Source: Candidatus Omnitrophota bacterium (lineage in GTDB: Bacteria; Omnitrophota; Gorgyraeia; JABMRN01; RBG-13-46-9). From it: a stretch of DNA of 64,000 nt. A program made the position numbers and the translations under genes. Of the stretch, positions 5,103-40,902 are shown piece by piece; position 1 is the stretch's first letter; every line of letters starts with the position of its first letter. The notes below the pieces were generated by a model. That model was not told the DNA's origin. It saw only the letters and a list, made by a program, of their open reading frames with translations, and made no database searches. Where the stretch lies: the NCBI GenBank assembly GCA_013203315.1, contig JABMQJ010000007.1, forward strand, positions 3,270 to 67,269, in the 5' to 3' direction.

Positions 5103-5123
5103 TGGTTTTTATTATACCTTTTT

Positions 5124-23705: not shown

Positions 23706-24931
23706 CGCACCCCCTGTTTTTTCTTATTCAGAAAAGATTCGGTGACTTCTTTTATGTTTTTCGCTATGTAATCTACGTGCTCTGTGGTATAGAACTCATT
23801 CCACGGTAAAACCAGGACCTGCTCAAGAGCCTTCATCGTGCCGGGATATTCGGCAGTATCGTAAACAACTTCTTTTTCACCTTTCCTGCTTGAGCAATCG
23901 TATGGACAATGGCTCTTGCCGTAGGTTACCTTGTCTTTTAAAACTTTGCACATAAAGGCCGGTTTCTGTATATATCGCGGTACCGAAAAAATGTCTTTTT
24001 CCTTAAGTACCTTAGAGATTTCCGTTACACCTACGCCGAATAAATCGGTATCAACGATAAGGGCGTATTTCCAGAAAACATGCTCGCTATCTTTCGTAGA
24101 TTCCGGCAAGGTTATACCGGGCGTACCCCGAAGACGCTCTGTAAGCAATTTTGCTGTATCCTGTCGTCTTTTCACAACGCCTCTTACTTTCCTAAGCTGC
24201 GCCAAGGCTACTGCGCCCTGAAGATCGGTCATTCTATAGTTTAAAGCGAGGAAATAGTGATCCGGATTCGGGTCTCCGTATCCCCAGGCTTTATCGATGA
24301 ATAGCCTTATCCTTCGCTCGAGTGCGGCGTCTTTTGTAATGATTATACCGCCCTCGCCTGTTGTCATGTGCTTACCCTGTTGCAGGCTAAAACAGCCTAT
24401 GTCGCCTATAGTTCCAACGTTTTTGCCCTTGTAAGTGGCAAAATAGGCCTGACAGCAATCCTCTATTACAGGAATTTTATGTTCTCGCGCAAGATCCATT
24501 ATAGGATCCATTTCAGCGGGTTTTCCGAACAAATGCACAACTATTATGGCTTTGGTGCGTTTTGTAATCTTCGGTCTTATGGTATCAGCCGTAATGTTGA
24601 GTGTTACAGGATCCGTATCCGCAAAAATAGGTATCGCATTTTGATAAAGTATGGGTGTTATGCCTCCCATGTCCGTTATAGGGGTTGAGATGATTTCATC
24701 CCCCGGATCAGGGTTTACAGCAGCAATCGCTGTGTGGAGCGAAGATGTTCCGGAGGTCGTAGCATGAGCAAACCTTACACCGCATTCTTCGGCAAACTCC
24801 TTTACGAGTTTCTTAACCATAGTCCCCTTTGTCGCGTTTAGCGTACCGGATTCGATCACCTCTTTTAAAAGAGCTATTTCTTCTTTTCCTAAATCCCTTC
24901 CGGTTGAATTAGAATCGTTTGGCAGTTTCAT
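23702..24931 (-). CDS. DegT-family PLP sugar aminotransferase (WbpE-like)
   Basis: Fold-type I aminotransferase. The likely start is MKLPNDS at 24931 (ATGA overlap with the upstream gene) rather than the track start at 24970. Confidence 0.75.
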   Translation of the reverse strand: MKLPNDSNSTGRDLGKEEIALLKEVIESGTLNATKGTMVKKLVKEFAEECGVRFAHATTSGTSSLHTAIAAVNPDPGDEIISTPITDMGGITPILYQNAIPIFADTDPVTLNITADTIRPKITKRTKAIIVVHLFGKPAEMDPIMDLAREHKIPVIEDCCQAYFATYKGKNVGTIGDIGCFSLQQGKHMTTGEGGIIITKDAALERRIRLFIDKAWGYGDPNPDHYFLALNYRMTDLQGAVALAQLRKVRGVVKRRQDTAKLLTERLRGTPGITLPESTKDSEHVFWKYALIVDTDLFGVGVTEISKVLKEKDIFSVPRYIQKPAFMCKVLKDKVTYGKSHCPYDCSSRKGEKEVVYDTAEYPGTMKALEQVLVLPWNEFYTTEHVDYIAKNIKEVTESFLNKKKQGVR

Positions 24932-25641
24932 GCGTTCTCCTTTCTTAACAATGTTCTCATAATAAAACACAAATGTTCCCTTATTAACTTTAAGCTTTTT
25001 GCGTGAGAAGATCCGAATTGTCTCACCTTTAAGGTAGCCGGGTATTCCACTATCTTCAGACCTTTCTTTCGCGCTTTTATCAATATCTCCGCCATTGCGA
25101 GAAACCCGTCAGACCTAAAATATGAATTTTTCAGGGCTTCTCTTTTATATATCCTAAACATGCTAGTATAGGTATAAAACTTGGATTTTACCACAATATT
25201 GTATAAATTTGAAAGATTTCTGCTCAAAAACAGCCTATAAGCCGGCACGTTAAGCGTCGAGCCCTTTGGGTGATAAGGAGAAGCTGTGACAATATCAGCG
25301 TTTTCGTTTTTGATAATGTCTAGCATTTTAACTAAATAGCTTGGTTCGTAAGTACAATCTGAGTCTATTGTTGCTATATAATCCCCGCGCGAATTCGATG
25401 CGCCTGTCTTAATAGCAGCGCCTACGCCCGTATTTTTAGCGTGCTTTACGACCTTGACATCATTTCCGATTCGATCTCTATAGAGGCTGCGCAAGCGATC
25501 GTACGTAGAGTCTGAACTTCCGTCATCAACAAAAACAAACTCATGATCCTCGCGCAGATCCTGCTCCAGGTCTTTAAGCTTGGAGGCAAGATGTTCCAGG
25601 CCTTCTTCTTCATTAAAACATGGGATAACAATAGATATCAT
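24928..25641 (-). CDS. DPM1-like GT2 polyprenyl-phosphate monosaccharide synthase
   Basis: ISIVIPCFNEE..FVDDGSSDST..IDSDCTYEP motifs. 237 aa, no TM. Confidence 0.7.
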   Translation of the reverse strand: MISIVIPCFNEEEGLEHLASKLKDLEQDLREDHEFVFVDDGSSDSTYDRLRSLYRDRIGNDVKVVKHAKNTGVGAAIKTGASNSRGDYIATIDSDCTYEPSYLVKMLDIIKNENADIVTASPYHPKGSTLNVPAYRLFLSRNLSNLYNIVVKSKFYTYTSMFRIYKREALKNSYFRSDGFLAMAEILIKARKKGLKIVEYPATLKVRQFGSSHAKSLKLIREHLCFIMRTLLRKENA

Positions 25642-25650: not shown

Positions 25651-27045
25651 CTATTTTATCATTGCCTTTAAAAGATTTTTTCCGGCGTCAAAATTAAGTT
25701 TTAATCGATGAATGGATTTTAATCTGCGTGCCTGTTTCAGAAAAATGCCGGGCCTCAAATAAAATTCTCTGTAGGCACGTTTTTGCAAATCCCTGATCTC
25801 CTCTGCGGTTAGATCTTTTAATCTGTGCACCGGTGAAGTATGTATGCCGTAATTATCAAAATTATGTTCGAAAATGAGGTTGTTGCCAAGCAGTTCATCG
25901 TAAACCTCTGTACCGGGAAAAGGCTTCAATATATGAAATTTTGCGATATCAGGATTGATTTTCTTCGCAAATTCAATGGTTTTCCTTATATCATCGGCTG
26001 TTTCGCCGGGTAAACCCATTATAAAAAATGCCCATATTTCTATGCCATATTTGCGCGTTATCTTAAAAACCTCCTCAATCCGTTCAAGCTTAATGCCCTT
26101 TTTGATTCTGTCCAGTATTTTCTGGCTACCCGATTCAATCCCGAAAGCGATGCTATAGATACCCATCTCCTTTAGAGCGCTAAGAAGCTCCTCGTCGACA
26201 GAATCGATCCTCATGCCGTCCGGTACTGCAAAGTTCAGGCGTAAATTTCTCTTTTTTATTTCATCCTTGATCCGGATGACCCTCGATTTTATAAGCGCGA
26301 AATTATCGTCCCAGATATGTATTTCTTTAGCTCCGAATTCTCTGACCAGGTATTCTATTTCATCAACTATATTCTTAGGCGATCTTGTCCTGAATTTTCG
26401 TTTAAAAATACAGCTTCCCGCGCAATAGGTGCAACGGGCAGGACAGCCTCTGCTTGTAATAATCGGAAATACAGGGGTAGCCAATGTATCGGGATATGTA
26501 TAGTTGCGGTTGTTGCAAAGGTGCCTTGCCGGAAAGGGAACTTCGTCGAGATTGTCAATGAGTTCCCTATCTTTATTTTTATGTACCTTCCCGTTCTTTC
26601 TATAATAAATGCCGTCTATCGATTCCGGGCCACGACGGCCTTCCAGATAATCGGCGAGTTCAACTATTGTCCTTTCCCCTTCGCCCTTAACGATAAAGTC
26701 GACTGAATCAAACTTCATTGACTCTTCCGGTAGCGCCGTTACGTGAATGCCGCCTAGGACTGTAAGTGCTTTGGAATATTTTTTAACCAGCTTTGACAGG
26801 GAAATGGCTTCGTTAAAAGTAGGCGTAGTCGTGGTTATCCCTACCAGATCATAATTATGTTCTTCTAATTTTTTTATAAAATCCTTTTCAGAAATCTTAT
26901 CGGCATCCATATCGATAATGTTAACTGTACGGCCCGCCGCCTCCAGGACCGAGCCGATATATCCAAGCCCAAGGGGCGGAAAATCCGGAGCCGAAAGCTT
27001 TCCGTATATTTTTGACTGTGAGGGAGCGGCTAATAAAATTTTCAT
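25651..27045 (-). CDS. B12-binding domain radical SAM enzyme
   Basis: PLGLGYIGSVLEAAGRTVNIIDMD cobalamin-domain-like N-terminus, then TSRGCPARCTYC. Confidence 0.75.
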   Translation of the reverse strand: MKILLAAPSQSKIYGKLSAPDFPPLGLGYIGSVLEAAGRTVNIIDMDADKISEKDFIKKLEEHNYDLVGITTTTPTFNEAISLSKLVKKYSKALTVLGGIHVTALPEESMKFDSVDFIVKGEGERTIVELADYLEGRRGPESIDGIYYRKNGKVHKNKDRELIDNLDEVPFPARHLCNNRNYTYPDTLATPVFPIITSRGCPARCTYCAGSCIFKRKFRTRSPKNIVDEIEYLVREFGAKEIHIWDDNFALIKSRVIRIKDEIKKRNLRLNFAVPDGMRIDSVDEELLSALKEMGIYSIAFGIESGSQKILDRIKKGIKLERIEEVFKITRKYGIEIWAFFIMGLPGETADDIRKTIEFAKKINPDIAKFHILKPFPGTEVYDELLGNNLIFEHNFDNYGIHTSPVHRLKDLTAEEIRDLQKRAYREFYLRPGIFLKQARRLKSIHRLKLNFDAGKNLLKAMIK

Positions 27046-28076
27046 CGTAACAATGTCCTTGCCATTACGCCGGGGTTAAAAAGAGAATTTATCAGGTAAA
27101 CGCAGGAGTGGGTACAAAAGCAACTCTTGATCTTTTGCCTGATCTGGTCAGCTTTTTTTGATGTCCACAATTTATTAAAATCGTATCCAAAATCCCTGAG
27201 ATTGCCTATTTTTTCATTTATCAATTCACATGCATAGACATCGCCGTACGGGTTTATCACAGCACTTAAACGGCCTGCAAAACAATCTATCTTCTTTTTG
27301 TTTCTTTCCAAAGTTTCCAAAATCAAATCATGTTCATAAAGCTTGGTTTTTTGCAGTATTTTTCCTTTCCATCCGCCGCCATAGCCGTAGGAGCTTATGC
27401 ACCCCTTTATTACCGGAAACAGTTCCCTGCACCGGGCTATATCGGGTAAAGAAACAGATAGAGAGCGTGGCTGTCCCCTTAAAAACTCGAAGCTGTGCAT
27501 ATCCGCACGAAATGAACGCTTAACATAATCTATAATCTTTGTGATTTCGGATTCATTTTCTTTCATTATTACTGTATTAAAACTGATCTTAAAATTTGGG
27601 TGCTTCTCCCTTAGCCTGCTAACTCTTTGGTATGTTTCGGTTACTTTGTCAAAATTGCCGCCAACGCCCCGTATCGCATCATGCGTATCCCGGAGACCAT
27701 CCAGAGAGAGTGATAGTAATAGGCTTGACCTATTATTTTTCAATATTTCTTTAAGGGCCTTCTCAATCCCCTCGGGATCAAGGCAGTTAGTAGGAATTGC
27801 TGTGGTATTTACTTTTCCGAACGCATCACAGATCCCGGGTAAATCTTTCCTTAAAAAAGGTTCTCCCCCGCCGATTTGTAGCCAGATAATATCATCGAGG
27901 TGCTTTCGAATTTTCCTTATTTCATCGACTGTCAATTCATTTTCTACGGCGCTTTCGTCAATTTCCTTCCATAAAAAACAGCTCCTACATTTAGAATTAC
28001 ACCTATAAGTACAATGAAACATGATATGAATCGGAAGCCCATTTTTATTCCACATTTTCGCTAAATAATTTATCAT
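27042..28076 (-). CDS. Radical SAM enzyme with C-terminal Cys-rich SPASM/twitch-like auxiliary-cluster domain
   Basis: CNSKCRSC (Cx3Cx2C) near the N-terminus, GGGEP motif, and C-terminal cysteines (CFAGR..YACE..CFCTHSC). Confidence 0.65.
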   Translation of the reverse strand: MINYLAKMWNKNGLPIHIMFHCTYRCNSKCRSCFLWKEIDESAVENELTVDEIRKIRKHLDDIIWLQIGGGEPFLRKDLPGICDAFGKVNTTAIPTNCLDPEGIEKALKEILKNNRSSLLLSLSLDGLRDTHDAIRGVGGNFDKVTETYQRVSRLREKHPNFKISFNTVIMKENESEITKIIDYVKRSFRADMHSFEFLRGQPRSLSVSLPDIARCRELFPVIKGCISSYGYGGGWKGKILQKTKLYEHDLILETLERNKKKIDCFAGRLSAVINPYGDVYACELINEKIGNLRDFGYDFNKLWTSKKADQIRQKIKSCFCTHSCVYLINSLFNPGVMARTLLR

Positions 28077-28900: not shown

Positions 28901-29632
28901 TTATCTATCCCTTATTTCATCCTTCAAAAGAAGCTTTTCCAGCCATGCGTATAAAACCGTAAAAAGATATTTTCTACCCATTTCCTTGACGCTTAGTTTT
29001 GAGACACCGCTTTTTCTGCCGTACCAGTTTATGGGTATTTGAACAAACTTAAATTTTCGCGCAATCGCCTTTAAAGGGAGCTCTACAGTAATATTGAAAT
29101 ATAGCGCCTGAATAGGCTGGATTTTTCTTATAACCTTTGTCCTGTAAAATTTAAAGGCATTTGTGATGTCGTTGGCTCTGGTAAGAAATAAAACCTGTAT
29201 AAAGGTATTGGCTAATCTATTTATGAACAATTTGAGCGGTGGGTAGTCTTTTACAACGCTGCCTTTCATGAATCTTGAACCAAATACACAGTCGTATCCT
29301 TCTTCTATTTTTCGGAAACACTTCACAATGTCCCTGGGGTCATCGGAGAGGTCACCCATAACAATTCCCACAACATCACCTGTTACCTGGTTTAAACCGT
29401 CTTTTATTGCCCGTCCGAATCCGGAAGGTTTCTGACGATTAATCAGTTTAATTACCGAGTGCGTTTTCATGAGATCCGCGACGATCCCAATAGTATTGTC
29501 AGTGCTATTATCATTTACAACGATAATCTCGTATTCAATACCTTCTTTATTAAGGACAGTTATAATATCACAAATTGTCTGACCTATACAGTCTTCTTCG
29601 TTGTGTGCCGGGGTAACTATCGATAACTTCAT
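28901..29632 (-). CDS. DPM1-like GT2 polyprenyl-phosphate monosaccharide synthase
   Basis: LSIVTPAHNEE..VVNDNSTDNT..MGDLSDDP motifs. 243 aa. Confidence 0.7.
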   Translation of the reverse strand: MKLSIVTPAHNEEDCIGQTICDIITVLNKEGIEYEIIVVNDNSTDNTIGIVADLMKTHSVIKLINRQKPSGFGRAIKDGLNQVTGDVVGIVMGDLSDDPRDIVKCFRKIEEGYDCVFGSRFMKGSVVKDYPPLKLFINRLANTFIQVLFLTRANDITNAFKFYRTKVIRKIQPIQALYFNITVELPLKAIARKFKFVQIPINWYGRKSGVSKLSVKEMGRKYLFTVLYAWLEKLLLKDEIRDR

Positions 29633-29634: not shown

Positions 29635-30615
29635 TTACTCCTTTGCGGATGAAATAGCTTCTTCTTCACCAAACAAACTAAATAGCCCTAGCGGAATTAT
29701 AAACACATAAAAAGGTATGAGAATCCTTACCTCGCTTATGGCGCCTCCTCTTGAAAAACCGTAAAGCAAAAAAAGCGTCATGGGTATTAATGCCCTTTTC
29801 AGTATGCTGGGTTTCTTGCGAAAATTCATAAACGCCAAAAACCAATAAAAACCACATAAATATAATATAAAATAAAAATGATTATATGGGTTCGGCGATT
29901 CAAATATTTTTAATAACCCTGCCACATTAACCCGGAAATGGTGAAAATAGCCCGGTAAATCCCTGATACCGAAAATTGAAATGAGTATTGCCGAAGGAAT
30001 AAGCCATAGCAAAAAGTAAATTGCCGTCCTTCTTATTAGGACAAACCAATTTTCTTTTCCGATCTCGTTGAAGAAATAAATAAGAACAAGTGCTATCGAG
30101 GTTTCCCTGTTAAGTGAGGCCAACGGTATCAGAATAAACAAGTTCTTATGTTTCCCATCCCGAATCCACATTACTCCTAGGATAAACATTATGAGCTCCG
30201 GCATATCCGTAGGTACCGAATACCAGTTAGTAAGGGTTAAAGGCAAAGAGGCTATTAGTGACAGCGTCCCTATCATTGCCGTTTTCTGGCCAAACCATTT
30301 TCGTAGATACATATGAAAAAGCGCAAAAGCCAGAAAGTAAAAAAGGAATCTGAACAATGCATATGAGTATTCTAATGAGATATGCGAAACCTTATGAAAG
30401 AAATAGACCGTATAAGGAACTAATATGCGATGATTCATGGGAGGATTAAAGTCACCCTTCACAACACTCTCTAAGGCTTGGGTAGATCTCTCAAAAGTAA
30501 GCACCCTCCGATCAAAATCGATATATCCCATTACAAAGGTGAGAAAGAAATATATCAATAAAATCTTTACTAAATCCCTGTTATTTTCTAGGTATCTACG
30601 CATTTTGTTTAACAC
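29635..30615 (-). CDS. Polytopic membrane protein, unknown function (tandem paralog 1)
   Basis: About 9 TM helices. Shares YFFLTFV.GYIDFDRRV.TFE.ST..L......G......RILIPYTV and C-terminal NPYNH.YF.LYLCGFYW.LAFM motifs with the upstream neighbour. Confidence 0.45.
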   Translation of the reverse strand: MLNKMRRYLENNRDLVKILLIYFFLTFVMGYIDFDRRVLTFERSTQALESVVKGDFNPPMNHRILVPYTVYFFHKVSHISLEYSYALFRFLFYFLAFALFHMYLRKWFGQKTAMIGTLSLIASLPLTLTNWYSVPTDMPELIMFILGVMWIRDGKHKNLFILIPLASLNRETSIALVLIYFFNEIGKENWFVLIRRTAIYFLLWLIPSAILISIFGIRDLPGYFHHFRVNVAGLLKIFESPNPYNHFYFILYLCGFYWFLAFMNFRKKPSILKRALIPMTLFLLYGFSRGGAISEVRILIPFYVFIIPLGLFSLFGEEEAISSAKE

Positions 30616-31573
30616 GCTTTTTTCCTTCAGTGAAGAGACTCGATAATCCCAATGGTATCACAAAAACATAAAACGGCATAAATATTCTCGTCTCATTTAT
30701 AGCGCTGACTCTTATAAAAACATAAAGGAAGTAAAGTATCATAACAATAACGGACCTCTTTAGTAGCGGGTCTTTCTTATGAAAATCCATGAACGCCAGT
30801 ATCCAGTAGAAACCACATAAATAAAGCAGAAAATAATAGTGGTTGTACGGATTGGGATTCTTAAATACGTGCAGAAGCCCTGCTACGTTATGTTCCAAGG
30901 TGACAAAATTCGAAAACTTCTCAAAACCAACCATGGCAATCATGATGCCAAATGGTATTGCCCACAAAAGACCATATATAATAGTCCTCCTGATTAAAAT
31001 AAGTGGTTTTTCCCTGCCTATACCGTATAGAAAATAAAGCAGAACAAGCGCAAGCGTTGCTTCCTTGTTAAATGTCGCAATCGGTATTAATATATAAAGA
31101 AGTTTATATTGATTTTTTTTGATCCACATCATCCCAAGGATGAAGGCTATAAAGTTTGGCATATCGCTCGAGATACAATACCAGTTAGTGAGAAATAACG
31201 GCAAAGAGGCAATCACCGATAACGTACCGATCATGGCACGCTTATCGTCAAACCACATTTTGAGATATATGTGAAAAAGGATAAAGGCCAGCAAAAAGAA
31301 AATGAACCTAAAAAACGCATAACTGTATGTGAGCGGTATGTGCGTTACCTTGTGAAAAAGATCTACCGTATAGGGAATCAAAATACGCCGCCCAAGAGGA
31401 GCACCAACTTCTCCGGTAATTATGTTCTTTAACTTCTCGGTAGATTGTTCAAACGTAAACACCCGCCGGTCAAAATCTATGTACCCTATTACAAAAGTAA
31501 GGAAAAAATATACCATGAAAATCTTGAGCGTGGTTTTATTATTGTGGGAATATTCGCGTATACGGTTTAACAT
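30596..31573 (-). CDS. Polytopic membrane protein, unknown function (tandem paralog 2)
   Basis: Collinear with 29635..30615 along its whole length, overlapping it by 20 nt. Confidence 0.45.
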   Translation of the reverse strand: MLNRIREYSHNNKTTLKIFMVYFFLTFVIGYIDFDRRVFTFEQSTEKLKNIITGEVGAPLGRRILIPYTVDLFHKVTHIPLTYSYAFFRFIFFLLAFILFHIYLKMWFDDKRAMIGTLSVIASLPLFLTNWYCISSDMPNFIAFILGMMWIKKNQYKLLYILIPIATFNKEATLALVLLYFLYGIGREKPLILIRRTIIYGLLWAIPFGIMIAMVGFEKFSNFVTLEHNVAGLLHVFKNPNPYNHYYFLLYLCGFYWILAFMDFHKKDPLLKRSVIVMILYFLYVFIRVSAINETRIFMPFYVFVIPLGLSSLFTEGKKRVKQNA

Positions 31574-32856
31574 GACATCACTTCTTTTGCTTCGTTACCA
31601 AGCTTAATACGCCAAACCCATGCCGCTGCGGCCAAAAATGATAAGAATAGCGCCCGCGCCAGAACTTTATACACTATCTCGATATTTACGAAACGGCCCA
31701 CGATCTCCTGGATAGTGGGTAAGCTTGAAAAATATACCGGATTAAGCGGGGCGAACAAGCCCAATTGCAGGTCTCTCTGATACAACCACTGGAATCCTAG
31801 CATTGCTATTATCGCAAACACCAATATACCAAACTTCTTATAGTACGGGATGATCAAGGCTAAAAGTGGTGTTATAAAAATGAAATATCTGAATCGTATC
31901 GGTAATGCCGCATAACTTATAAACATCACGGTTATGAAATAGTATAAAAGTTTTCCGGCCGGGTTTGTTTGGCGGGAGTCTTTTACGGCGTTTATGCAAA
32001 GCAAAGAAAACAAAACCATAAATATACCTCTTAGTACCCATTTTGTGATGCCGGAGTATTGTACGTGTGACAACATAAAAATACCAAAAACCGCATCTCC
32101 GGAAGATAGATAAAACGGCACATATGGTAAGATTGCAGCTACAGTCGCTACCAACAGAAGTAAAAATCTTTTTCGCCAATTATCGCCTAAAAGTAGACAC
32201 GCGGGCAATATCAAAATATACGGGAATAATACCGTACCCCCGCCCAAGCCTAAAAGAATAACGCAAAAAAACGGCTTTTTCTTCCAGGCCGCATATAAGG
32301 CAGCTGCTATAAAAAACGTAGGGATTAAATACGCGCCGCCTACCATATATACGCTATGTAAAACTACGATGTTAAGCATCCAGAGTTTATAGGTATCTAT
32401 TGCAAATTTTTGTGACGTTGCTAATTTGAGCAAAATTCCGCCTATCAAAAAATCGAAAATAAGATATGGGATCTTCATTATAAATAAATTCTTAACTAGT
32501 CCGAGATTTGCAAAGGCGTGTACATAATCAACTGTAGTAAAATGCTTCCCCATCATTGTACCCGAAAGCTCTAACATCGCGATAAGCGAAGCGGGATTAG
32601 ACAATTTTATAATTATAAAGTCTGTGATAGACATGATGAAAAATAAAACGGGACCGTAGTATGTAAAATTAAAATGTGAAAAATTGGTAGCGATCAAAGC
32701 ATATGGATCCCAAATACCCTCTGTTATGAACTTCATCGGGAAATAATTTAAAAAGAGTAGATCCTGGCCATGCATGGTAAACGGTACTAAGGTTAGCCTG
32801 AGCGACAAACCGATGCATGTCCATAAAGCGATCTGTATGTAGTATTTTTTTACCAT
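31567..32856 (-). CDS. Polytopic membrane protein, unknown function (candidate GT-C / Wzy-like)
   Basis: 429 aa, at least 10 hydrophobic helices, no soluble domain. Confidence 0.35.
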   Translation of the reverse strand: MVKKYYIQIALWTCIGLSLRLTLVPFTMHGQDLLFLNYFPMKFITEGIWDPYALIATNFSHFNFTYYGPVLFFIMSITDFIIIKLSNPASLIAMLELSGTMMGKHFTTVDYVHAFANLGLVKNLFIMKIPYLIFDFLIGGILLKLATSQKFAIDTYKLWMLNIVVLHSVYMVGGAYLIPTFFIAAALYAAWKKKPFFCVILLGLGGGTVLFPYILILPACLLLGDNWRKRFLLLLVATVAAILPYVPFYLSSGDAVFGIFMLSHVQYSGITKWVLRGIFMVLFSLLCINAVKDSRQTNPAGKLLYYFITVMFISYAALPIRFRYFIFITPLLALIIPYYKKFGILVFAIIAMLGFQWLYQRDLQLGLFAPLNPVYFSSLPTIQEIVGRFVNIEIVYKVLARALFLSFLAAAAWVWRIKLGNEAKEVMSC

Positions 32857-32866: not shown

Positions 32867-34711
32867 TTAAAAGTCTTTAATCAATTTTCTTACGCGCTCC
32901 CGGCATTTGCCGTCAAGCTTGTAGACAAAATCGTTAACAAAATCCTTCCTTGCTAATTCCATGCTTTTCTTTACTTCCTTGTCATGCAGGGCCTTTTCAA
33001 TGGCATTTTTTATGTCGTCGCCCTTGTAAACGCCAAGGGCTACCCCGTTTTCCGTAAAAGGCAGCAAGCTCGGTCTTTTGCCTAAATTAATCGCAACAAC
33101 CGGTTTTTGCATAATCACTGCCTCGAGCCCCACTGTCGAATCAGGCGTCATTACTACGTCTGATGCCGCTATTAGCTTATGTAAATTTGTTTTGTGGACA
33201 AAGATTACGTAGTTCTTATCTTCTTTCTTAAATAACTCCATAAAAGCGCGGATATTCTGGTTTGGATGAAGCTTAACAACCAAATTCATCTCACCGATTG
33301 ATTTGACTGCTTTAATAGCGTGTTTTATCAGATTATAAGATACATCATCGGTTTCAAAAGAGGAAAACCTATGCACTTCCGTACAAGGTGTTATAAGCGT
33401 CGAAAGATATTTCTTTCTGCTAAGTTTAAGCGCGTTCTGAATGTACTTATTTTTGTCGAGACGCATGGGTTTGGTTAGTGCGTCAAAGCTCGGGTTTCCT
33501 ATTGCTTCGGTTTTAGAGGGGCCGTTGTCAAATTTTTCGTACCAAGATACGGCACGATTTCCCCATACCGCAATCTTATCTGCGAGAATAACATTGTGTC
33601 CATTGGGTTCGGCAAGTATGCCGTGTTGAATAACCAGCGTCGGAATGTCGTTTTTCTTTGATACCGATACAAGGGTTTTTTCAAGTTCTCTTATGTCATT
33701 CCTAAGTATAGTAGCCTTTATATTATAGGCGTTCTCGACCATAAGAAAAGTGTCGATATTTCTTCTGAATCTTACAAAGTCATGGAATATTAAAGTTATT
33801 ATTTTATCCTCTACCAACGCCCAGTAATTTACGCCGTCCAAAAAAAACAGTTTTGCCAGAGACTGAGTGTCAAAATCTTTAAACTCCACCGGTGGAACCG
33901 CTAATCTTTTTCGTTCTGATTCACCCATGCGAAATGAAATATAGCCACGGTTTTTAAAAAGACACTTCAGCCTTAACCTCATCCCTTCTTCTATCGGGGC
34001 TAAAATGAACCCTTTCTTTTCCTTTATGCCAAGTTCGCCATACAACCTCGCATCAATAAGTTTTATCGGGCCTTTTTTTCTGATAAAATATCCCGCAAGT
34101 TTATCAAGGACATTTGAAATGGATTCGGATATTTGCATTTTTACAAAGTTTCTGACTGAACTTTGTTTTTGAATTTTGACAAGATCGGCCCGGATGTGAT
34201 AATGTGCGCTTAGGAAGCTATCAAAACCGTTAAGCTCGCCGGTTGAGTCCATGATAAAAAATGCCTTATAATTTTCTTTCTTCATCGCCCTTTCGAACAC
34301 CAGAGAGGCCTTTACCTTTAAAAGCAAAAACAGTTGAAGATCATAATCTGCAAATCTCGCCAATTCGACACCGCGATACGTGAATAATTCTCGGTATTCG
34401 CCAGAGACGGCCTTATCCCAGTTTTGCGAAACTTCATTGAAAACGTGATGGTCTATTCCGGTGTAATCTTCATCGGCTAGATAGTCTTCTGAAACCTTAA
34501 CATAATCCGAAAAACCGGCAAATTCTTCGGGGATACGTGCTTTGAAACATAAAATTTCCGTATTATTTCCGAAGTGATCCAAATTATCTTCTATTGCCGC
34601 GGCAAATTCGCCTATCTTGTCGAAGCCATTTATGACCAGGACCTTTTTTTGCGAAGAATTTTGCGCCAAAAATTTCTTTAGCTTACTTTTTAAAAATATT
34701 AAATCCTGCAT
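32867..34711 (-). CDS. Soluble GT-B-like transferase of the Capsule_synth (KpsS/KpsC) / TagF-like class: candidate nonulosonic-acid or glycerophosphate transferase
   Basis: C-terminal region VVKLHPNQN..LIAASDVVMTPDSTVGLEAVIMQKPVVAINL resembles the HP motif and donor-binding half of capsule Kdo-transferase/TagF-type enzymes. No TM segments. Confidence 0.4.
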   Translation of the reverse strand: MQDLIFLKSKLKKFLAQNSSQKKVLVINGFDKIGEFAAAIEDNLDHFGNNTEILCFKARIPEEFAGFSDYVKVSEDYLADEDYTGIDHHVFNEVSQNWDKAVSGEYRELFTYRGVELARFADYDLQLFLLLKVKASLVFERAMKKENYKAFFIMDSTGELNGFDSFLSAHYHIRADLVKIQKQSSVRNFVKMQISESISNVLDKLAGYFIRKKGPIKLIDARLYGELGIKEKKGFILAPIEEGMRLRLKCLFKNRGYISFRMGESERKRLAVPPVEFKDFDTQSLAKLFFLDGVNYWALVEDKIITLIFHDFVRFRRNIDTFLMVENAYNIKATILRNDIRELEKTLVSVSKKNDIPTLVIQHGILAEPNGHNVILADKIAVWGNRAVSWYEKFDNGPSKTEAIGNPSFDALTKPMRLDKNKYIQNALKLSRKKYLSTLITPCTEVHRFSSFETDDVSYNLIKHAIKAVKSIGEMNLVVKLHPNQNIRAFMELFKKEDKNYVIFVHKTNLHKLIAASDVVMTPDSTVGLEAVIMQKPVVAINLGKRPSLLPFTENGVALGVYKGDDIKNAIEKALHDKEVKKSMELARKDFVNDFVYKLDGKCRERVRKLIKDF

Positions 34712-36185
34712 TTTTTACCCGATTGTATAAATCCATTTTTTTATTTACATGCATCAAAAGCGGAAATGTCAGCGCTAAAAAAATGAGCATTTGCCATATC
34801 GCCCTTCCGATATCCGACGGCAAATCTTTGAAGCCACCGTAAAACATGCGGCCTACGACATAGAAAGCAAAAATGCTCCATATGATCGGCGCATTGAGGT
34901 TTATGAAAAAAGTTATTCTCTTATAGAGATTAGGTATGTGATATTTTACGGCGTATCCTATTGTAAAACTGCTGTATAAGAAATAGGTGACTGCTGTGCC
35001 AAGGGCTATTCCCCTGATCCCTAGATTAAATACCTTCACAAACAAGAGATTTAGCCCTGCGCTGATAGCAATACATAATACGCCAATTATCAGGATCAGG
35101 TGTTGTTTCTTCAGGGCAATTAAGAGATACCTTGACATGTACCCTATCGATATAAAAAAGGTGCCAAAGAGCAGTATCGACGCAGCCGTGATCCCATTTG
35201 TATATTTCGGCAGCACATAATTTACGAAAACAGGCATTGTTATTGCCGCTAATCCTATTATAACGGGGAATAAATACGCGAACGCGAGCGTTGGTTTTTC
35301 GACATAGTTCTTTATTTTGCTGACATCGTCTTTTGAGTCGCCAAAGGCTTCGTAAAAACGCGGAAACAAAACAACGTAAATCAAATTAGGTAGCTGAAAA
35401 AGGAAAGAGTGCACCATAATGGCAATGCTGTAATACCCCAGGTCGTTCTTCGTGAGAAGAGATAATATCATGATCCGATCTATGTTCCTTAGGGCCATAA
35501 AAGTAAAGCCTCCCAAGAATATAGGAAAGCCTATGGCTAAAAGCATTTTAAGGGTCTTGGCGGATATTTTAAACGTTATCCTGAACCGCACCTTAGTCTT
35601 TTTGAATAGATACAGAAGCCCCACCGTAAGGCTTAAGATCGTCGCCCAGAGGACTCCTATTACTCCGAATTTTATACCCAATAAGGCCTTAAAAAGAACA
35701 TCACATAGGGCCAGGATAATAATGTATTTGCTCAGAACCCCGAACAAGTGGTGGGTCCGAGCCAGGGTAACGTAAAAAGTATTCATGGACTGTATAACCA
35801 CCAGTGCGGCAATTACCTTTATCCCGATAGACATCACCGGCGTTAGCGTGTTCCTGAAAACGTAGGATATAACCAGTATAATTAAAGCTGAAGCGAGCGC
35901 GGTAAAAAGACCAAAGCTTATGCCCACATTTTTTGCTTCTTCCACCTTTTTGGTTTCTTTTTTTCCGTTATAATACGGTATTTGCCTATCCAGGGAATCG
36001 TATATACCCACGTGGCTATATTTGGCGTACTCAAAGATCAGCAATAATTCCAGATACACGCCCATAAAAAAAGAATCCAGCACCTTGCGGACAATGGTTG
36101 CGCTTATAAATGAGCAAAAACTCGATATATAACCGCTTATGCTAAATCTGGTTGCGTCTTTTAATATCTCTTTGGATTTACTCAA
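34683..36185 (-). CDS. MOP-superfamily polysaccharide flippase (Wzx-like)
   Basis: 500 aa, about 12-14 TM helices, Polysacc_synt-like arrangement. Confidence 0.6.
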   Translation of the reverse strand: MSKSKEILKDATRFSISGYISSFCSFISATIVRKVLDSFFMGVYLELLLIFEYAKYSHVGIYDSLDRQIPYYNGKKETKKVEEAKNVGISFGLFTALASALIILVISYVFRNTLTPVMSIGIKVIAALVVIQSMNTFYVTLARTHHLFGVLSKYIIILALCDVLFKALLGIKFGVIGVLWATILSLTVGLLYLFKKTKVRFRITFKISAKTLKMLLAIGFPIFLGGFTFMALRNIDRIMILSLLTKNDLGYYSIAIMVHSFLFQLPNLIYVVLFPRFYEAFGDSKDDVSKIKNYVEKPTLAFAYLFPVIIGLAAITMPVFVNYVLPKYTNGITAASILLFGTFFISIGYMSRYLLIALKKQHLILIIGVLCIAISAGLNLLFVKVFNLGIRGIALGTAVTYFLYSSFTIGYAVKYHIPNLYKRITFFINLNAPIIWSIFAFYVVGRMFYGGFKDLPSDIGRAIWQMLIFLALTFPLLMHVNKKMDLYNRVKNAGFNIFKK

Positions 36186-37608
36186 CGCCTATTTTCTCCT
36201 TCACCTTGCCTAATGACCAGCCAAAGGTCTTCATTGCGCCCTCGGCTTTTATTCGTTTTTTAAGGTCTTCGAATATCCTTTTTGATTCTTCGGTCGCAAT
36301 TTCAATCCTGGAACGCAGGCTAAAGTTTTCTCTTATTTTCGCTTCCGCTCTTTCTTTCAAACTCTTAAGCTCCTTATCGGACATCGTGGTTAAATTCACC
36401 AGAAGCGTGTTATACATCTCGCCTAGCGAGCTTACATATTTATTTTCGTCATCCGGTATTTTCCGCATTTCTTTCGCCATCTCATAAAGCGGGGTATTGG
36501 GATAAGGCGTTGTGTAGAAAAACCGGTGAAGCGTTAGGCCCGTTCTTTTTATAAACTCTACGGTTTCATTAACACTTTCCTCGGTTTCGCCGATCATTCC
36601 TATCATGAAAGAGCCCTCTATGCCGATACCCGCTTTTCTTGTAAATTCCACCGCTTTTTCCGCCTGTTCTACTCTTACCCCTTTCTTTATGCTATCCAGC
36701 ATTCTTTGGCTCCCCGACTCAAATCCATAGCTTAAAGCCTCGCAGCCCGCTTTTTTCATCTTTTTAAGTAAGTTCAGATCCACCAGATTTACTCTTGCTG
36801 AAGCGCCCCAGCCGATTTTAAGTTTTTCTTTTATCAGGGCATCGCAAAACTCCTCTACCCAGGACCTGTCGATCGTAAAGAGGTCGTCGGTAAAGCCTAT
36901 GAACTCTATATTATAACACCGTTTAAGCTCTTTTATTTCGGCGACAATGCTTGCCGGTGAGCGTTTATATACACGGGGACCAAAGGGCCTGGAGCAATAG
37001 ATGCATTGAAACGGGCACCCCCGCACCGTGGAGATATTCATGCTTCTTCTACCGTATTCAGTGTGGATCGGATTATTAATATAAGTTTCCATTTGAAAAA
37101 GATCCCAAGCCGGAAAGGGAATTCTGTCCAGGTCTTTTATTCTCTCTCTGGGAGCCGTAGAGACAATCCGATTTCCTTTCTTAAAAACTATTCCTTTGAC
37201 GCTATCTATTTCAGGAAAATCTTTTATTCTTTGCATTAGCTCTCTTATTGTTTCTTCGCCCTCGTCAATCACGCATATATCAATCTGTGAATGACGCAGC
37301 AATAACTCCGGAGATGAGGTTGAAACCATGTTGCCCGCGATCATCATGACATTCGGTTTTACTTTTTTTGCAATGTTGGAAAACTTTTTTACAAAGTCAT
37401 AAGTTGTAGTTAACCCACCGATACCTATGGCATCACAATCTACTGTTTCAAGCTCCCTCTCAATGGCTTCGTATGGCTTCTTGCTCACGTTGAAATCCAT
37501 TAAAGACACGTTGTGACCTTCCTGCCTCAGCACGCTTGCGACATATCCCAGTCCCAGAGGAATAAGGGAAGGCGTTCTGCACGGCGGATTAACCAAGAGA
37601 ATATGCAC
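36178..37608 (-). CDS. B12-binding domain radical SAM enzyme
   Basis: LIPLGLGYVASVLRQEGHNVSLMD N-terminus and TVRGCPFQCIYC motif. Confidence 0.75.
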   Translation of the reverse strand: MHILLVNPPCRTPSLIPLGLGYVASVLRQEGHNVSLMDFNVSKKPYEAIERELETVDCDAIGIGGLTTTYDFVKKFSNIAKKVKPNVMMIAGNMVSTSSPELLLRHSQIDICVIDEGEETIRELMQRIKDFPEIDSVKGIVFKKGNRIVSTAPRERIKDLDRIPFPAWDLFQMETYINNPIHTEYGRRSMNISTVRGCPFQCIYCSRPFGPRVYKRSPASIVAEIKELKRCYNIEFIGFTDDLFTIDRSWVEEFCDALIKEKLKIGWGASARVNLVDLNLLKKMKKAGCEALSYGFESGSQRMLDSIKKGVRVEQAEKAVEFTRKAGIGIEGSFMIGMIGETEESVNETVEFIKRTGLTLHRFFYTTPYPNTPLYEMAKEMRKIPDDENKYVSSLGEMYNTLLVNLTTMSDKELKSLKERAEAKIRENFSLRSRIEIATEESKRIFEDLKKRIKAEGAMKTFGWSLGKVKEKIGVE

Positions 37609-37621: not shown

Positions 37622-38638
37622 TCATTTAATCAAACTTAATTTAAGGGGACTGCCTTTTGCAATGGACTTCGTTGCTCTTTTGTTTAATATGGATTTTAAA
37701 TGCTTGGGCGGCAGCCCGAATCCGGGCCTGACAGACCTCACATTTTCGTGTGTAAAAATCTCTCCTTTTTTTATGCTTTTAGCTGCGAAGAGAGAGCGCC
37801 TGAAAATAAGATTCTTCTTTTCCTCTTCTGATAGACCGCTATGCGTATCCCCTATCGCCTCTTCAACGATCCTTATGTCATCTACGAGTTCTTTGAGTTC
37901 CTGCGGTTCGATAGAGAAAAAACTGTCCGGAGTTTTAATTTTTCGCGATAATGTAAAATGTTTCTCGATAACTTCCGCCCCGAGGGCAACGGCTGCTATT
38001 GACACGCCTATCCCCATCGTATGATCCGAAAGCCCCACAGGGCACTTAAATGTCTTTTTCATGCGCGAAATACCTTTTAAGTTCATTTGAGTCGGTTTGG
38101 CCGGATAGCTACTTACGCATTTCAGTAAAGTTATGTTCTTTGCGCCCGCGGATTTGGCTGTTCGGACAGCGTCATTTATCTCTGAATCGGTTGCCAATCC
38201 GGTCGATAGGATGAGGGGTTTTTTTGTTCTGGCCGCATGTTCAACAAGAGGCAAATCCACTAATTCAAAGGAAGCGACCTTGTGAATGGGCACATTGAGT
38301 TCCTCTAAAAAATCAACACTTGTTTTATCAAACGCTGTCGAAAAAAATAGTATATCTTCTTCCTCGGCAACTTTTTTTAGTTTTTTAAACCAGCTCCATG
38401 GCGTATATGCCTTCTTATATAATTGATACAGCGTTCGCTTGCCCCATTTGGGGTGTTTTACCTGGAAGTACTTGTTGTCTACATTTAGGGTTAGCGTATT
38501 GGCTGTGTAGGTTTGAAATTTTATCGCGTCGGCACCGCATGCTTTTGCTTTTCTTATCATGGAAACAGCTTTTTTAAAATCCTGGCCGTGGTTGGCCGAA
38601 ACCTCCGCAATAATAAAAACTCTTTTGGATTTAGGCAT
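37622..38638 (-). CDS. pseI: Pseudaminic acid synthase (NeuB family)
   Basis: VFIIAEVSANHGQD..AKACGADAIKFQTYT..LKCVSSYP..GLSDHT..EKHFTL, plus a C-terminal SAF domain (RSLFAAKSIKKGEIFTHENVRSVRP). Collinear with Campylobacter PseI. Confidence 0.8.
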   Translation of the reverse strand: MPKSKRVFIIAEVSANHGQDFKKAVSMIRKAKACGADAIKFQTYTANTLTLNVDNKYFQVKHPKWGKRTLYQLYKKAYTPWSWFKKLKKVAEEEDILFFSTAFDKTSVDFLEELNVPIHKVASFELVDLPLVEHAARTKKPLILSTGLATDSEINDAVRTAKSAGAKNITLLKCVSSYPAKPTQMNLKGISRMKKTFKCPVGLSDHTMGIGVSIAAVALGAEVIEKHFTLSRKIKTPDSFFSIEPQELKELVDDIRIVEEAIGDTHSGLSEEEKKNLIFRRSLFAAKSIKKGEIFTHENVRSVRPGFGLPPKHLKSILNKRATKSIAKGSPLKLSLIK

Positions 38639-38639
38639 T

Positions 38640-40106
38640 TTATTTTCCTCTTGCGTAAAACTTTGTTTTATATCGATTAATTTTAATGTTCTTCTGAAAA
38701 TTAAACCCGGCCTTTTTGAAAGCTCTTATGGAAGGTATATTTTTTTCTCTTATATATGCGTTTATGCTGTTTATGTCCGGCCTCTCGGCAAAAAAAGTAT
38801 TTACGGCTATATTCAAAATATATGAAGAAAGATTCAAGCCGCGTGCGCTCTTTACCAGGCTAAAACTGATTGCGGCTTCATTTTTTGGTTTGTCAATATC
38901 AAATCTTATTTGACCATAAAATTGGTTTGAAACGGAAATTATAAAAAGTACGCAATCTTTATCTTTCATTCTTTTCTTCATCCATCCAAGATGATGGTCC
39001 CAGCTTATTATTTTAGGATCAAAGGAACCTTCCCTGACCCTTCTTTCGTTAAATAAGTTAAGTATATCTCGCGCATCTTGAATGCGGGCTTTCCGTAACG
39101 AAAGATTGTTTTCAAACCACTGCGATAAAATTGCCTTTACAGCCGTTTGGCTGCCGCTGCCGCCTATAAGAAGTTTGGCTATTTTCGATCTTTGTTTTCT
39201 TACTTTTACGCTTTTAAATCTTTCTATCGATCTTTTAACTCTTTTTTTAAGATTTCCATCATTGAACCGGCCTGCGTATTCCAGAAAACCGGCCTTTTCC
39301 CAACCCTTGGCGTTCTTAAGTTGATTTTTCGCGACACATACGCCTATTGTCGGAATACCAACACGCGCGAGCTCATAAAGAGTTTGCCCCGCAGCGGAAA
39401 TCGCTATGTCTGATCTTATCATTATTCTTTTCATCTTTTCTGAACTCGGATTATGGATAAATTTTGTTTTCGAATCTTTCAAACTATCTATTTTTTCTAT
39501 GCTCCGAAACCCTCCGCCTATGACCACAAGTTTCCTGAATTGTGGGTACTCATTTTTTAACAAATTAAGTATAAGCGGGGTCATTTGTCTTTTATCGTCT
39601 CCTCCAAAAGTAACCAATACGCGGTTTACAGCTTTCTTTATTTTTATATTCGGCATATTCCAAAATTCTCTTCGTATGAGGGTGTAGTTTGTTCCGAGAA
39701 GATATGAAATCTCTCTATCTTTGGCATAATTAAGCGTCGTAGCGTACACAGATCCATTAAGAACAACCCCCTTGTCATACTTTAGTCTATTATTGTCATC
39801 GACATAAACAGCAAGGTCAACATTGTTAGAAATTTCCTTATAGAATCTCTCATCACACATGTAGGAATCTACAATACAAATTGCAGATCCCCGAACGGTC
39901 TCAAGAAGCCTCTTTTTCTCTTTTAACCAATCAAAAATAAAGTATTTTCTTTTCCCGAGAATATTGCATACGCTTTTATCGCCGTTTATTATAAATACAG
40001 GGCTGATGCTGCGTTCCTCAAAGGCCTGAGAAAGAGAAACACACCTTGCTAAATGACCGAAGCCCACATTCTTACCACCCTCTGTTATTATGAAAACTTT
40101 TCTCAT
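38640..40106 (-). CDS. Fusion protein: PseG-like UDP-sugar hydrolase (N-terminal) plus GNAT N-acetyltransferase PseH-like (C-terminal)
   Basis: N-terminus KVFIITEGGKNVGFGHLARCVSL matches the PseG GFGH signature and MurG-like fold order. The C-terminal ~160 aa have GNAT-like motifs. Confidence 0.65.
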   Translation of the reverse strand: MRKVFIITEGGKNVGFGHLARCVSLSQAFEERSISPVFIINGDKSVCNILGKRKYFIFDWLKEKKRLLETVRGSAICIVDSYMCDERFYKEISNNVDLAVYVDDNNRLKYDKGVVLNGSVYATTLNYAKDREISYLLGTNYTLIRREFWNMPNIKIKKAVNRVLVTFGGDDKRQMTPLILNLLKNEYPQFRKLVVIGGGFRSIEKIDSLKDSKTKFIHNPSSEKMKRIMIRSDIAISAAGQTLYELARVGIPTIGVCVAKNQLKNAKGWEKAGFLEYAGRFNDGNLKKRVKRSIERFKSVKVRKQRSKIAKLLIGGSGSQTAVKAILSQWFENNLSLRKARIQDARDILNLFNERRVREGSFDPKIISWDHHLGWMKKRMKDKDCVLFIISVSNQFYGQIRFDIDKPKNEAAISFSLVKSARGLNLSSYILNIAVNTFFAERPDINSINAYIREKNIPSIRAFKKAGFNFQKNIKINRYKTKFYARGK

Positions 40107-40843
40107 ATTTTCTTTTGAATCACTTTATTGTTTAGCGATTTAAGCCACGGATTTTCGCGTAATGTCTTGACCACATCAAAAGCTGTAAATTTAGCCTTCT
40201 TTTTAAAAAGAAGGCTAAATATCGCATTGATGAATGAGTAATCCTCTTTGGTATCAAGCACAAGCCTTATATCCGGGCCGTAAAGCTCCCGCGGTGCTTT
40301 AACTTGAGTAATCTTAAAAGCCTTTGGCCTTTTGTAAATATAAGGAGTTACATGCTCTTTTTCACTTGGTTTCTTGGCATTTTTATACGCCTTTTCAAGG
40401 ACGCTAAAGTTAAAAACTTCGGTATCAAATCCGCGGGGATAGCTTCTCGTGAGTGTGTTTGAAGTATAATCGGACTTTGACTTTATGTGCCTGGTGATTA
40501 TTGAATCTACTATCTCCGGATCTATGCATGGGCAATCGCTACAAATTCTCACTATCACATCCAGTTCGTTTTCCTTTGCGCAAAAATAATACCGGGACAA
40601 AACATTCTCTTCGCTCCCCCTAAAAAGGGTAACCTTTTCTTTTTTTGCGACATTAGCGATTTCATCACTATCCTTTTTATTGACTGTCGCGACTATAATT
40701 TCGTCTAATCGCTTTGATTTTTTCAGTCTTCTTGTGACATGTTCGAGCACTGTAATGCCGCTTCCGGCAGGGACCTCTTTCAAGACCTTACCCGGAAGTC
40801 TGGTCGAAGAAAATCTCGCCTGTACTATAGCGCCTACCTTCAC
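40103..40843 (-). CDS. Acylneuraminate cytidylyltransferase-family enzyme (PseF/SpsF-like CMP-sugar synthetase)
   Basis: N-terminal AIVQARFSSTRLPGK nucleotidyltransferase motif. 246 aa. Confidence 0.6.
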   Translation of the reverse strand: MKVGAIVQARFSSTRLPGKVLKEVPAGSGITVLEHVTRRLKKSKRLDEIIVATVNKKDSDEIANVAKKEKVTLFRGSEENVLSRYYFCAKENELDVIVRICSDCPCIDPEIVDSIITRHIKSKSDYTSNTLTRSYPRGFDTEVFNFSVLEKAYKNAKKPSEKEHVTPYIYKRPKAFKITQVKAPRELYGPDIRLVLDTKEDYSFINAIFSLLFKKKAKFTAFDVVKTLRENPWLKSLNNKVIQKKI

Positions 40844-40902
40844 CTTGGCGTTCTCCTTTAAAGCCTAACGTTTATAAGGCATTTCTTTGTCAATTACATG
40901 AA

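Follow-up and report, generated by a model that had tools for sequence, protein, structure and literature searches.

ArnC, a GT2 synthase, partners the GT-C enzyme ArnT, and EmbA-EmbB (encoded in tandem in embCAB) and Pmt1-Pmt2 are paralogous GT-C pairs that act together. In the GT136 pentofuranose system, a polyprenyl-phosphate-sugar synthase of GT2/UbiA type, a flippase of the MOP/MATE family and a GT-C enzyme are encoded together (PMC11127046). In brief, type A GT-C enzymes such as PimE, ALG6, ArnT and PglB have a core of seven helices and two juxtamembrane helices, the first of which bears the catalytic Asp (PMC12041525). The GT87 family (PimE) has this architecture, uses donors of the polyprenyl-phosphate-mannose type and contains short helices that span the membrane partially (PMC12041525). 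Here we describe X1 and X2, two tandem genes for polytopic membrane proteins in a stretch of 64,000 nucleotides (the window) from a Candidatus Omnitrophota bacterium (assembly GCA_013203315.1, contig JABMQJ010000007.1, positions 3,270 to 67,269). We lean towards the view, drawn from sequences and a structure model, that X1 and X2 are minimal GT-C-type periplasmic glycosyltransferases, which would take polyprenyl-phosphate sugars made by the neighboring GT2 enzymes as donors and work alongside a GT87-like enzyme. The fold, remote homology, topology bias, synteny and phylogeny reported below were computed in this work.

Predicted fold and membrane topology

An AlphaFold model of X1 built from the single sequence had a mean predicted local distance difference test (pLDDT) score of 51.8 and was discarded. 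With an 87-sequence alignment the pLDDT was 90.6 and the predicted TM-score (pTM) 0.89. When this model was compared to the PDB with Foldseek, the top 16 matches were all GT-C glycosyltransferase structures. They comprise chains of 639-706 residues from oligosaccharyltransferase complexes (human, canine and yeast), which by their size would be STT3, together with AftA, AftB, AftD and ALG9. The Foldseek probability was 0.99-1.00 in 15 of these 16 and 0.93 for AftD, with query-normalised TM-scores of 0.34-0.61. The next matches were G protein-coupled receptors and transporters, with probabilities of 0.33 or less, and structures of WaaL, RodA, FtsW or acyltransferase-3 were absent from the 50 listed matches. 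The X1 model also has the N-terminal helix bundle and the juxtamembrane helices within the initial extracytoplasmic loop (EL1) that define GT-C type A (PMC12041525). The structure-model search proposed in the initial annotation thus points to GT-C, and we suggest from the model that X1 and X2 have a GT-C fold outside any curated family model.

From the sequences and the predicted helices, the X proteins would span the membrane 10 times, with both termini in the cytoplasm. The predicted helices 41-52, 65-77 and 224-238 are polar or amphipathic and were therefore counted as juxtamembrane. The content of Lys plus Arg per residue was 0.216 in the cytoplasmic segments versus 0.091 in the periplasmic segments (mean of 87 sequences). 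A model of high confidence supports the polytopic character that had been read from the letters alone, and the inferred helices that span the membrane number 10, in addition to the juxtamembrane ones. Every invariant polar residue falls on the periplasmic side of the inferred topology.

Conserved residues

Conservation was counted across an alignment of 87 diverse family members. R63 is found in all 87, E294 in 86, R296 in 84, N229 in 82, G116 in 80 and P307 in 79, and N169 and E171 are found in 78 each. X1 carries D33, D35, R63, N169, E171, N229, E294, R296 and P307, and X2 keeps every invariant residue. The motif D33-F-D35 and H101 are invariant in the Omnitrophota subfamily only (31 sequences, X1 and X2 included). 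It had been proposed that conserved His, Asp and Arg residues in predicted loops may be catalytic. The Asp and Arg residues do lie in extracytoplasmic loops.

Two patterns are common in GT-C enzymes, a DxD-type motif just after the first transmembrane helix (TM1) and, in a late luminal loop, an Arg followed by a conserved Pro (Rx4-14P) (PMC6801728). The X proteins fit the second with R296-x10-P307, and D33xD35 occupies the post-TM1 position throughout the Omnitrophota subfamily.

Remote homology to PMT_2/ArnT-type proteins

We take Pfam PMT_2 (PF13231) to correspond to CAZy GT83/GT39. A hidden Markov model (HMM) of the X family was searched against 633 open reading frames (ORFs) from the window and the fetched loci. 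Apart from the X genes it matched just two proteins, both GT-C proteins of the PMT_2 type: the PMT_2/ArnT-like protein of the window (30.1-30.6 bits, E 8.9e-9) and one encoded in the related locus L010 (E 5e-7). Both matches cover positions 10-216 of the model. In 1000 shuffles of the PMT_2 sequence within 20-residue windows the score did not exceed 1.1 bits, versus 30.6 for the real sequence, and the reversed PMT_2 sequence, the Wzx protein and the GT87-like protein of the window gave no score. The HMM alignment places the invariant Y-R-x-L-x-P of the X family (YRvLvP) on SYRPPFY of the PMT_2 protein. In X1, D35 precedes R63 by 28 residues, and in the PMT_2 protein the D of TDE precedes the R of YRPP by the same distance.

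A pairwise Smith-Waterman comparison of X1 with the PMT_2 protein was not significant (z = 0.75), and the relation is therefore seen by the family profile alone. Using hhalign, the X family aligned to the single PMT_2 sequence with an E value of 7.7e-4 and a probability of 25%. The corresponding probability for the GT87-like protein of the window was 0.1% as a single sequence and 0.4% as a 39-sequence profile. As judged from these sequence comparisons, the relation to PMT_2 is one of remote homology only.

A family without a curated model

The breadth of the X family was assessed with a word-indexed search and by running a profile against 1.84 billion cluster representatives. The word-indexed search found a close subfamily of 37 relatives, each at least 57% identical; those with a named source all come from Omnitrophota, and none of the 37 carries a Pfam domain. 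The wider family comprises 1,106 representatives of 50% identity clusters at E <= 1e-3 (424 at E <= 1e-10), most of them 300-350 residues long. An indexed search with the diverse alignment returned matches that are all named hypothetical protein and have no Pfam domain, one of them from Krumholzibacteriia. Searches for related loci gave four loci from the genome scan and three short ones from the metagenome scan. X1 and X2 themselves are deposited, with exactly these sequences, as the hypothetical proteins HQ549_01645 and HQ549_01640 of a Candidatus Omnitrophica metagenome-assembled genome. The genes are therefore not orphans, as had been stated, but have 37 close relatives in Omnitrophota and 1,106 representatives in the wider family. 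To our knowledge, no CAZy family covers the X family.

In Pfam scans of X1 and X2 there was no match to GT87 (PF09594), and PMT_2 gave none at E <= 0.1 (gathering threshold 26.1 bits). PMT_2 touches 4 of the 87 diverse members, with a best E of 1.1e-4. NF046093, a model for the AZOBR_p60025 family, touches 32 of the 87 over roughly TM2-TM7 (best E 4.1e-9). X2 scores 20.5 bits (E 2.2e-4) with it, where the cut-off is 150, and X1 gave no match. A literature search for AZOBR_p60025 returned nothing. Sequence searches of the PDB with X1 and the family profiles gave NUOP8 (E 0.2-0.5) and KEI1 (E 0.035), which we rejected as chance hydrophobic matches.

The initial annotation could not assign a family and named OatA-like O-acetyltransferases, the GtrA flippase and Wzy as identities that a confident hit might reveal. 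No curated model matches at its threshold, so the first part stands at the level of families, but the fold and the superfamily can be assigned to GT-C. The three named identities either score below their cut-offs or do not match. GtrA gave no Pfam match to X1 or X2, and it is a four-helix protein of about 120 residues, compared to 325 residues and 10 inferred transmembrane helices here.

The X1-X2 gene pair

X1 and X2 are full-length, collinear minus-strand genes for proteins of about 325 residues, with coordinates and overlap exactly as first noted (Table 1). The GTG start of X2 is preceded, 7 nucleotides upstream, by a Shine-Dalgarno-like site, GAAGGA (30623-30628), and the N-terminus of X2 (V/M-L-N-K) aligns with the conserved MLNK/R start of its orthologues. 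We favor the GTG start on these two grounds. It should be noted that the 20-nucleotide overlap depends on this start; the alternative ATG at codon 5 still leaves an overlap of 8 nucleotides. The overlap and the Shine-Dalgarno-like site suggest that translation of the two genes is coupled. The start of X1 overlaps the upstream GT87-like gene by 7 nucleotides, and the gene after X2, encoding the small GT2 protein GT2_243, begins 2 nucleotides beyond the X2 stop codon. Given the two overlaps and the 2-nucleotide gap, we regard these genes as a tightly coupled operon segment.

In a pairwise alignment, the X1 and X2 proteins are identical at 188 of 319 positions (59%, with 76% positives; BLASTP E = 2e-139), and a single gap of one residue is needed; chance would not produce similarity of this degree. 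The codon alignment gives 62% nucleotide identity (65/80/42% at the three codon positions), lower than the roughly three-quarters that had been estimated by eye. Two of the shared blocks quoted at that time are correct, but the third, RILIPYTV, reads RILVPYTV in X2. The two proteins are most alike within the membrane helices (68% identity), less so in the periplasmic loops (51%) and least in the cytoplasmic segments (43%). The proportion of synonymous differences (pS) is 0.78, meaning that synonymous sites are saturated, with a nonsynonymous divergence (dN) of 0.33, which indicates an old split with purifying selection on both copies. Both copies are intact and keep all 63 positions that are invariant in the Omnitrophota subfamily.

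X1 and X2 were sisters in none of 200 bootstrap replicates. In 75% of replicates X1 fell together with the family representatives P0019, P0023 and P0025; X2 grouped with P0015 and its relatives. Each is closer to X genes in other genomes (67-69% identity) than to its neighbor (59%). Based on the absence of a sister relationship, the pair derives either from an ancient duplication that was lost elsewhere or from two diverged versions that were brought together. The 12 related loci with both flanks visible carry one X gene each, and two copies were seen only in this window and on a 1.6-kb contig (L006). The initial annotation thus dated the split correctly as old, but its view of a duplication kept as a pair does not hold in relatives, and neither does the idea that related genomes always retain both genes.

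Synteny and fusions

The order GT87-like gene, X gene, small GT2 gene recurs in nine Omnitrophota loci (L001, L002, L007, L009, L017, L018, L019, L020 and L021) and in part in three others (L014, L015 and L016). A GT87-like gene lies upstream of X in all Omnitrophota loci with enough flanking sequence. In L004 a gene for a decaprenyl-phosphate phosphoribosyltransferase (6981-7853; 269.9 bits, cut-off 234) takes the place of the GT2 gene and overlaps the stop codon of X, which implies a pentofuranose donor in that Omnitrophota lineage. This enzyme is the other known source of polyprenyl-phosphate sugars used by GT-C enzymes (PMC11127046).

GT87 and X remain paired in L011 and L013, two distant loci whose X proteins have about 25% identity. 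In L013, the real gene at 4539-5909 (+) encodes a GT87 homologue directly upstream of X, 77.6% identical to the GT87 protein of L011 by tblastn. The public annotation of L013 has a 475-residue ORF on the minus strand at this place, which is a wrong-strand call on a contig of 64% GC. A 722-residue frame running across GT87 and X in L011 was considered as a fusion and rejected as a chance open frame (contig of 66% GC). L012 has an X gene without a GT87 neighbor.

A true fusion is present in P0109, a family representative of 734 residues from outside the window, in which an X domain (27-338) is joined to a GT87 domain (434-637; Pfam E 3.2e-10), a counterpart of the GT87-X pair of genes. Fused X-X proteins make up 6 of the 150 best family representatives (P0042, P0062, P0096, P0107, P0137 and P0150; 629-719 residues), and their halves are 29-61% identical. 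In four of the six the N-terminal half (P0042a, P0107a, P0150a and P0096a) lacks ExR or R63, and the C-terminal half is intact. These fusions with degraded N-terminal halves hint that the family works as a two-protomer unit.

X2-like genes are directly followed by orthologues of GT2_243 (70-80% identity) in L017, L020 and L021. X1-like genes are followed by orthologues of a second small GT2 protein of the window, GT2_237 (63-68% identity), in L001, L016 and L018. We tested whether X type and GT2 type follow a strict one-to-one co-phylogeny and rejected this, as only a trend was seen.

Proposed function

From the gene neighborhood and the model we infer a donor, an acceptor, catalytic residues and a division of labor between the two copies. 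The donor for X would be a polyprenyl-phosphate sugar, as read from the adjacent GT2 gene or, in L004, from the phosphoribosyltransferase gene. In brief, the adjacent small GT2 of the DPM1/GtrB type would load a sugar onto polyprenyl phosphate in the cytoplasm, and the lipid-linked sugar would then be flipped, possibly by the Wzx/MOP protein of the operon. X would move the sugar to a surface glycan on which the adjacent GT87-like GT-C enzyme also works. In the Omnitrophota subfamily, D33-x-D35 at the end of TM1 is the putative catalytic base. R63 (in Y-R-x-L-x-P), the N169-K/R-E171 loop and E294-x-R296...P307 are putative holders of the donor phosphate and sugar.

We suggest that there are two X copies because the operon combines two cassette variants, with X2 going with GT2_243 and X1 resembling the X genes found beside GT2_237-type synthases. 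GT2_237 is thus a candidate donor synthase for X1. The two proteins would then add two different residues or linkages, and they probably serve two donors or linkages. As a secondary possibility, X1 and X2 may form a heterodimer, as suggested by the fused X-X proteins elsewhere in the family.

Some observations weigh against X being a transferase of this kind. No curated model reaches its threshold for X1 or X2, with PMT_2, GT87 and NF046093 all below. The acidic position after TM1 varies across the wider family (D, Y or H), and therefore no catalytic base can be assigned family-wide. A GtrA-like flippase was not seen in the cassette, and a GT-C-like fold is also found in the non-catalytic protein PIGU (PMC12041525). 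L009 goes against the pairing of X type with GT2 type, both GT2 types accompany the single X of L021, and neither of them is present in L010 and L019. The missing family-wide acid, the PIGU precedent and the lack of a dedicated GtrA-type flippase would suit a protein with a GT-C fold that is no transferase itself but an obligate partner of the GT87-like enzyme, which stabilises that enzyme or binds, presents or flips the donor. In that case the pair would represent two isoforms of the partner, or the two halves of one dimer. The strict co-occurrence with GT87-like genes even at about 25% X identity and the X+GT87 fusion are consistent with such a role, and the degraded halves of the X-X fusions indicate that non-catalytic copies are tolerated. 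We nevertheless find it rather unlikely, since R63, N169/E171, N229 and E294/R296 show 90-100% conservation and are all placed at the periplasmic face, which is the pattern of an extracytoplasmic active site, unlike the mid-membrane pathway of a transporter or a scaffold. Moreover, both copies in the window retain the invariant residues, the Wzx/MOP protein can be the flippase, as in the GT136 systems, and the X gene of L012 stands without GT87. In an extended form, the whole X family would be an unrecognised obligate, (pseudo)dimeric partner of GT87-type enzymes with a GT-C fold that captures, flips or presents the donor, the cassette would be a four-part machine, and X1/X2 its heterodimeric version; we consider this unlikely.

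Polytopic proteins that cannot be assigned in Wzx-containing clusters usually turn out to be Wzy-type polymerases or O-antigen-ligase-like enzymes, which use polyprenyl-diphosphate-linked oligosaccharides. The operon has a Wzx-like flippase, the rest of the window yielded no confident Wzy, and EpsG matches 2 of the 87 members weakly (both distant, best E 1.7e-5). Such an identity is improbable for X1 and X2, which gave no match to Wzy_C or EpsG in the Pfam scan. Their fold matches are dominated by GT-C enzymes with monophosphate-linked donors, the profile similarity is to PMT_2/ArnT-type proteins, and the X genes are coupled to synthases of polyprenyl-monophosphate sugars (the small GT2 or decaprenyl-phosphate phosphoribosyltransferase genes) and not to initiating phosphoglycosyltransferases. 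That the pair is a redundant duplication, with one copy decaying and gene dosage as its only effect, is very improbable. A single copy is indeed usual in related genomes, but both ORFs are intact with all subfamily-invariant positions, dN is well below the saturated synonymous divergence (dS), each copy has relatives in other genomes that are closer than its neighbor, and doubling recurs in the second tandem pair of L006 and in the X-X fusions. A membrane O-acetyltransferase of the acyltransferase-3 type (OatA/OafA-like) that modifies the glycan is hardly credible. GDSL/SGNH genes adjoin X in L002 and L019, and X2 has a weak match to Acyl_transf_3 (PF01757; 16.6 bits, E 0.0042). This match is below the cut-off of 31 bits, X1 has none and only 1 of the 87 members matches. 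In addition, acyltransferase-3 structures do not appear among the listed fold matches, and the invariant residues of X differ from those that acyltransferase-3 would require. We thus retain the periplasmic GT-C-type transferase as the preferred reading.

The surrounding glycan island

The window (1-64000) is one surface-glycan biosynthesis island with almost all genes on the minus strand. Around X1 and X2 the gene order is Wzx, a 614-residue BFO_1060-type transferase, GT87-like, X1, X2, GT2_243, GT2_275, two radical-SAM genes and GT2_237. Coordinates of the genes discussed with X1 and X2 are given in Table 1.

Table 1. Position of X1, X2 and associated genes in the window
Feature	Position	Strand	Remarks
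X1	30596-31573	-	upstream paralogue, 325 residues, ATG start; ORF read
X2	29635-30615	-	downstream paralogue, 326 residues, GTG start; ORF read
Overlap of X1 3' end and X2 5' end	30596-30615	-	20 nucleotides, read directly from the sequence
GT87/DUF2029-like GT-C membrane glycosyltransferase	31567-32856	-	429 residues; directly upstream of X1
GT2_243	28901-29632	-	soluble small GT2 of DPM1/GtrB/ArnC type, 243 residues; Glycos_transf_2 E 2.7e-28
GT2_237	24928-25641	-	soluble small GT2 of DPM1/GtrB type, 237 residues; Pfam and NCBIfam matches
Wzx/MOP-family flippase	34683-36185	-	500 residues; Polysacc_synt, Polysacc_synt_3; weak Wzx_EPS and MATE matches
PMT_2/ArnT-like GT-C protein	18673-20004	-	443 residues; PMT_2 E 5.3e-19; ArnT similarity

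About half of the homologues of the GT87-like protein carry PF09594 and are named DUF2029 or GT87, and its profile matches the PDB entry 'GPI mannosyltransferase 1' at 2e-10. The X proteins are about 100 residues shorter than this protein. GT2_243 and GT2_237 are 23% identical to each other, and both resemble PgfS, ArnC, AglJ, dolichyl-phosphate hexose transferase and PpgS. The first four are the best NCBIfam similarities of GT2_243, all below their cut-offs. Since enzymes of the PgfS/ArnC/AglJ/PpgS type load sugars onto polyprenyl phosphate, GT2_243 and GT2_237 are candidate polyprenyl-phosphate-sugar synthases. A Wzx/MOP gene upstream of the GT87-like gene is also found in L002, L004, L007, L009, L010 and L021. 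The 614-residue protein, encoded at 32867-34711 (-), resembles in its C-terminal half BFO_1060, TIGR04396 ('surface carbohydrate biosynthesis protein'), KpsS and WecB-type folds, and its N-terminal part of about 370 residues has no assigned family. Its gene is kept upstream of the GT87-like gene in several loci.

Four small GT2 genes of the DPM1/GtrB kind, encoding 237-244 residues, lie at 15693-16421 (+), 16408-17142, 24928-25641 and 28901-29632. Their products share 23-29% mutual identity, which suggests that several polyprenyl-phosphate sugar donors are made from this one locus. Four more polytopic membrane proteins without a confident Pfam family are encoded at 783-2333, 10231-11556, 11563-13551 and 49411-50835. 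Of these four, the 474-residue protein matches the NCBIfam putative glycosyltransferase family LA_3751/LA_3752 (E 2e-21, below cut-off), that of 662 residues weakly matches the PTPS_related membrane domain and that of 441 residues weakly matches PMT. With the PMT_2 and GT87-like proteins and the X1-X2 pair included, the GT-C-type proteins of the island may number seven or more.

Nonulosonic-acid genes are located at 37622-43118 and encode a PseB-like protein, a WbuX amidotransferase, a CMP-transferase, a PseG/GNAT fusion and NeuB. The window also has several sugar dehydratase and aminotransferase genes, and UDP-glucose dehydrogenase and RmlD-like genes at 50843-54955. A 119-residue ORF rich in lysine and glutamate (43128-43487, -) occupies the one gap of appreciable size in the operon, between an aminotransferase gene and the PseB-like gene. 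Radical-SAM genes are located at 14112-15665 (+), 25651-27045, 36178-37608, 46544-48064, 48105-49430 and 27042-28076; four of the products have a B12-binding domain, one lacks it and one is of the rSAM-SPASM type. This density is unusual for a glycan cluster and is also seen in related loci, with four such genes in L004. It suggests that the sugars are extensively C-methylated or otherwise altered by radical chemistry.

Comparison with known systems

PMT_2/ArnT-type enzymes share several features with X. Both have a GT-C fold in which TM1 is followed by a long periplasmic loop with juxtamembrane helices, and both have an operon partner in the form of a small GT2 polyprenyl-phosphate-sugar synthase. 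In X1, as in the PMT_2 protein of the window, an acidic motif where TM1 ends lies 28 residues before a conserved Y-R-(P/x); the profile match extends over the first 210 residues or so. Unlike these enzymes, X has about 325 residues with 10 inferred transmembrane helices, lacks a C-terminal periplasmic domain and stays below the PMT_2 threshold. The acidic post-TM1 motif is not kept across the wider X family, whose own hallmarks are NRET and ExR...P.

With the GtrA/B/C glucosylation and GT136 systems, which are periplasmic and have three components, the X cassette shares the logic of synthase, flippase and GT-C enzyme. It differs in having two or three GT-C-type proteins and in that X has no carbohydrate-binding or extramembrane domain; the cassette is known here from sequence. 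X and the GT87 family (PimE, DUF2029) share the GT-C type A architecture, short helices that cross part of the membrane and, putatively for X, donors of the polyprenyl-phosphate-mannose type, and GT87 is the constant gene neighbor of X and is fused to it in P0109, but the X family has no detectable profile-profile similarity to the GT87-like family of the window. NF046093, described as 'cell surface glycopolymer formation protein' and named from context, is the sole curated model that repeatedly touches the X family, although all X-family matches are far below its cut-off. Like EmbA-EmbB and Pmt1-Pmt2, X1 and X2 are paired, diverged GT-C paralogues, and the X-X fusions suggest a two-protomer unit. 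In contrast to those pairs, most genomes have a single X, and the likeness of X1/X2 is one of gene pairing alone.

If the proposed function is true, X would be among the smallest proteins of the GT-C type, in essence just the membrane core, and could be a simple model of lipid-linked donor binding by GT-C enzymes. Surface-glycan loci of Omnitrophota and of further uncultivated lineages would be better annotated once the family is recognised. Its constant GT87-like gene neighbor, its fusion to GT87 and the recurrent X-X fusions point to an undescribed multi-protein periplasmic glycosylation unit. The GT-C superfamily and the synthase-flippase-GT-C logic are known already, and no concept is overturned. 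What is new is an unannotated and unusually small family (about 1,100 clusters, no Pfam model) with a constant GT87 partner and recurrent doubling. Compared to the systems above, X1 and X2 are best seen as a small new offshoot of an already known enzyme class and not as a new kind of system.

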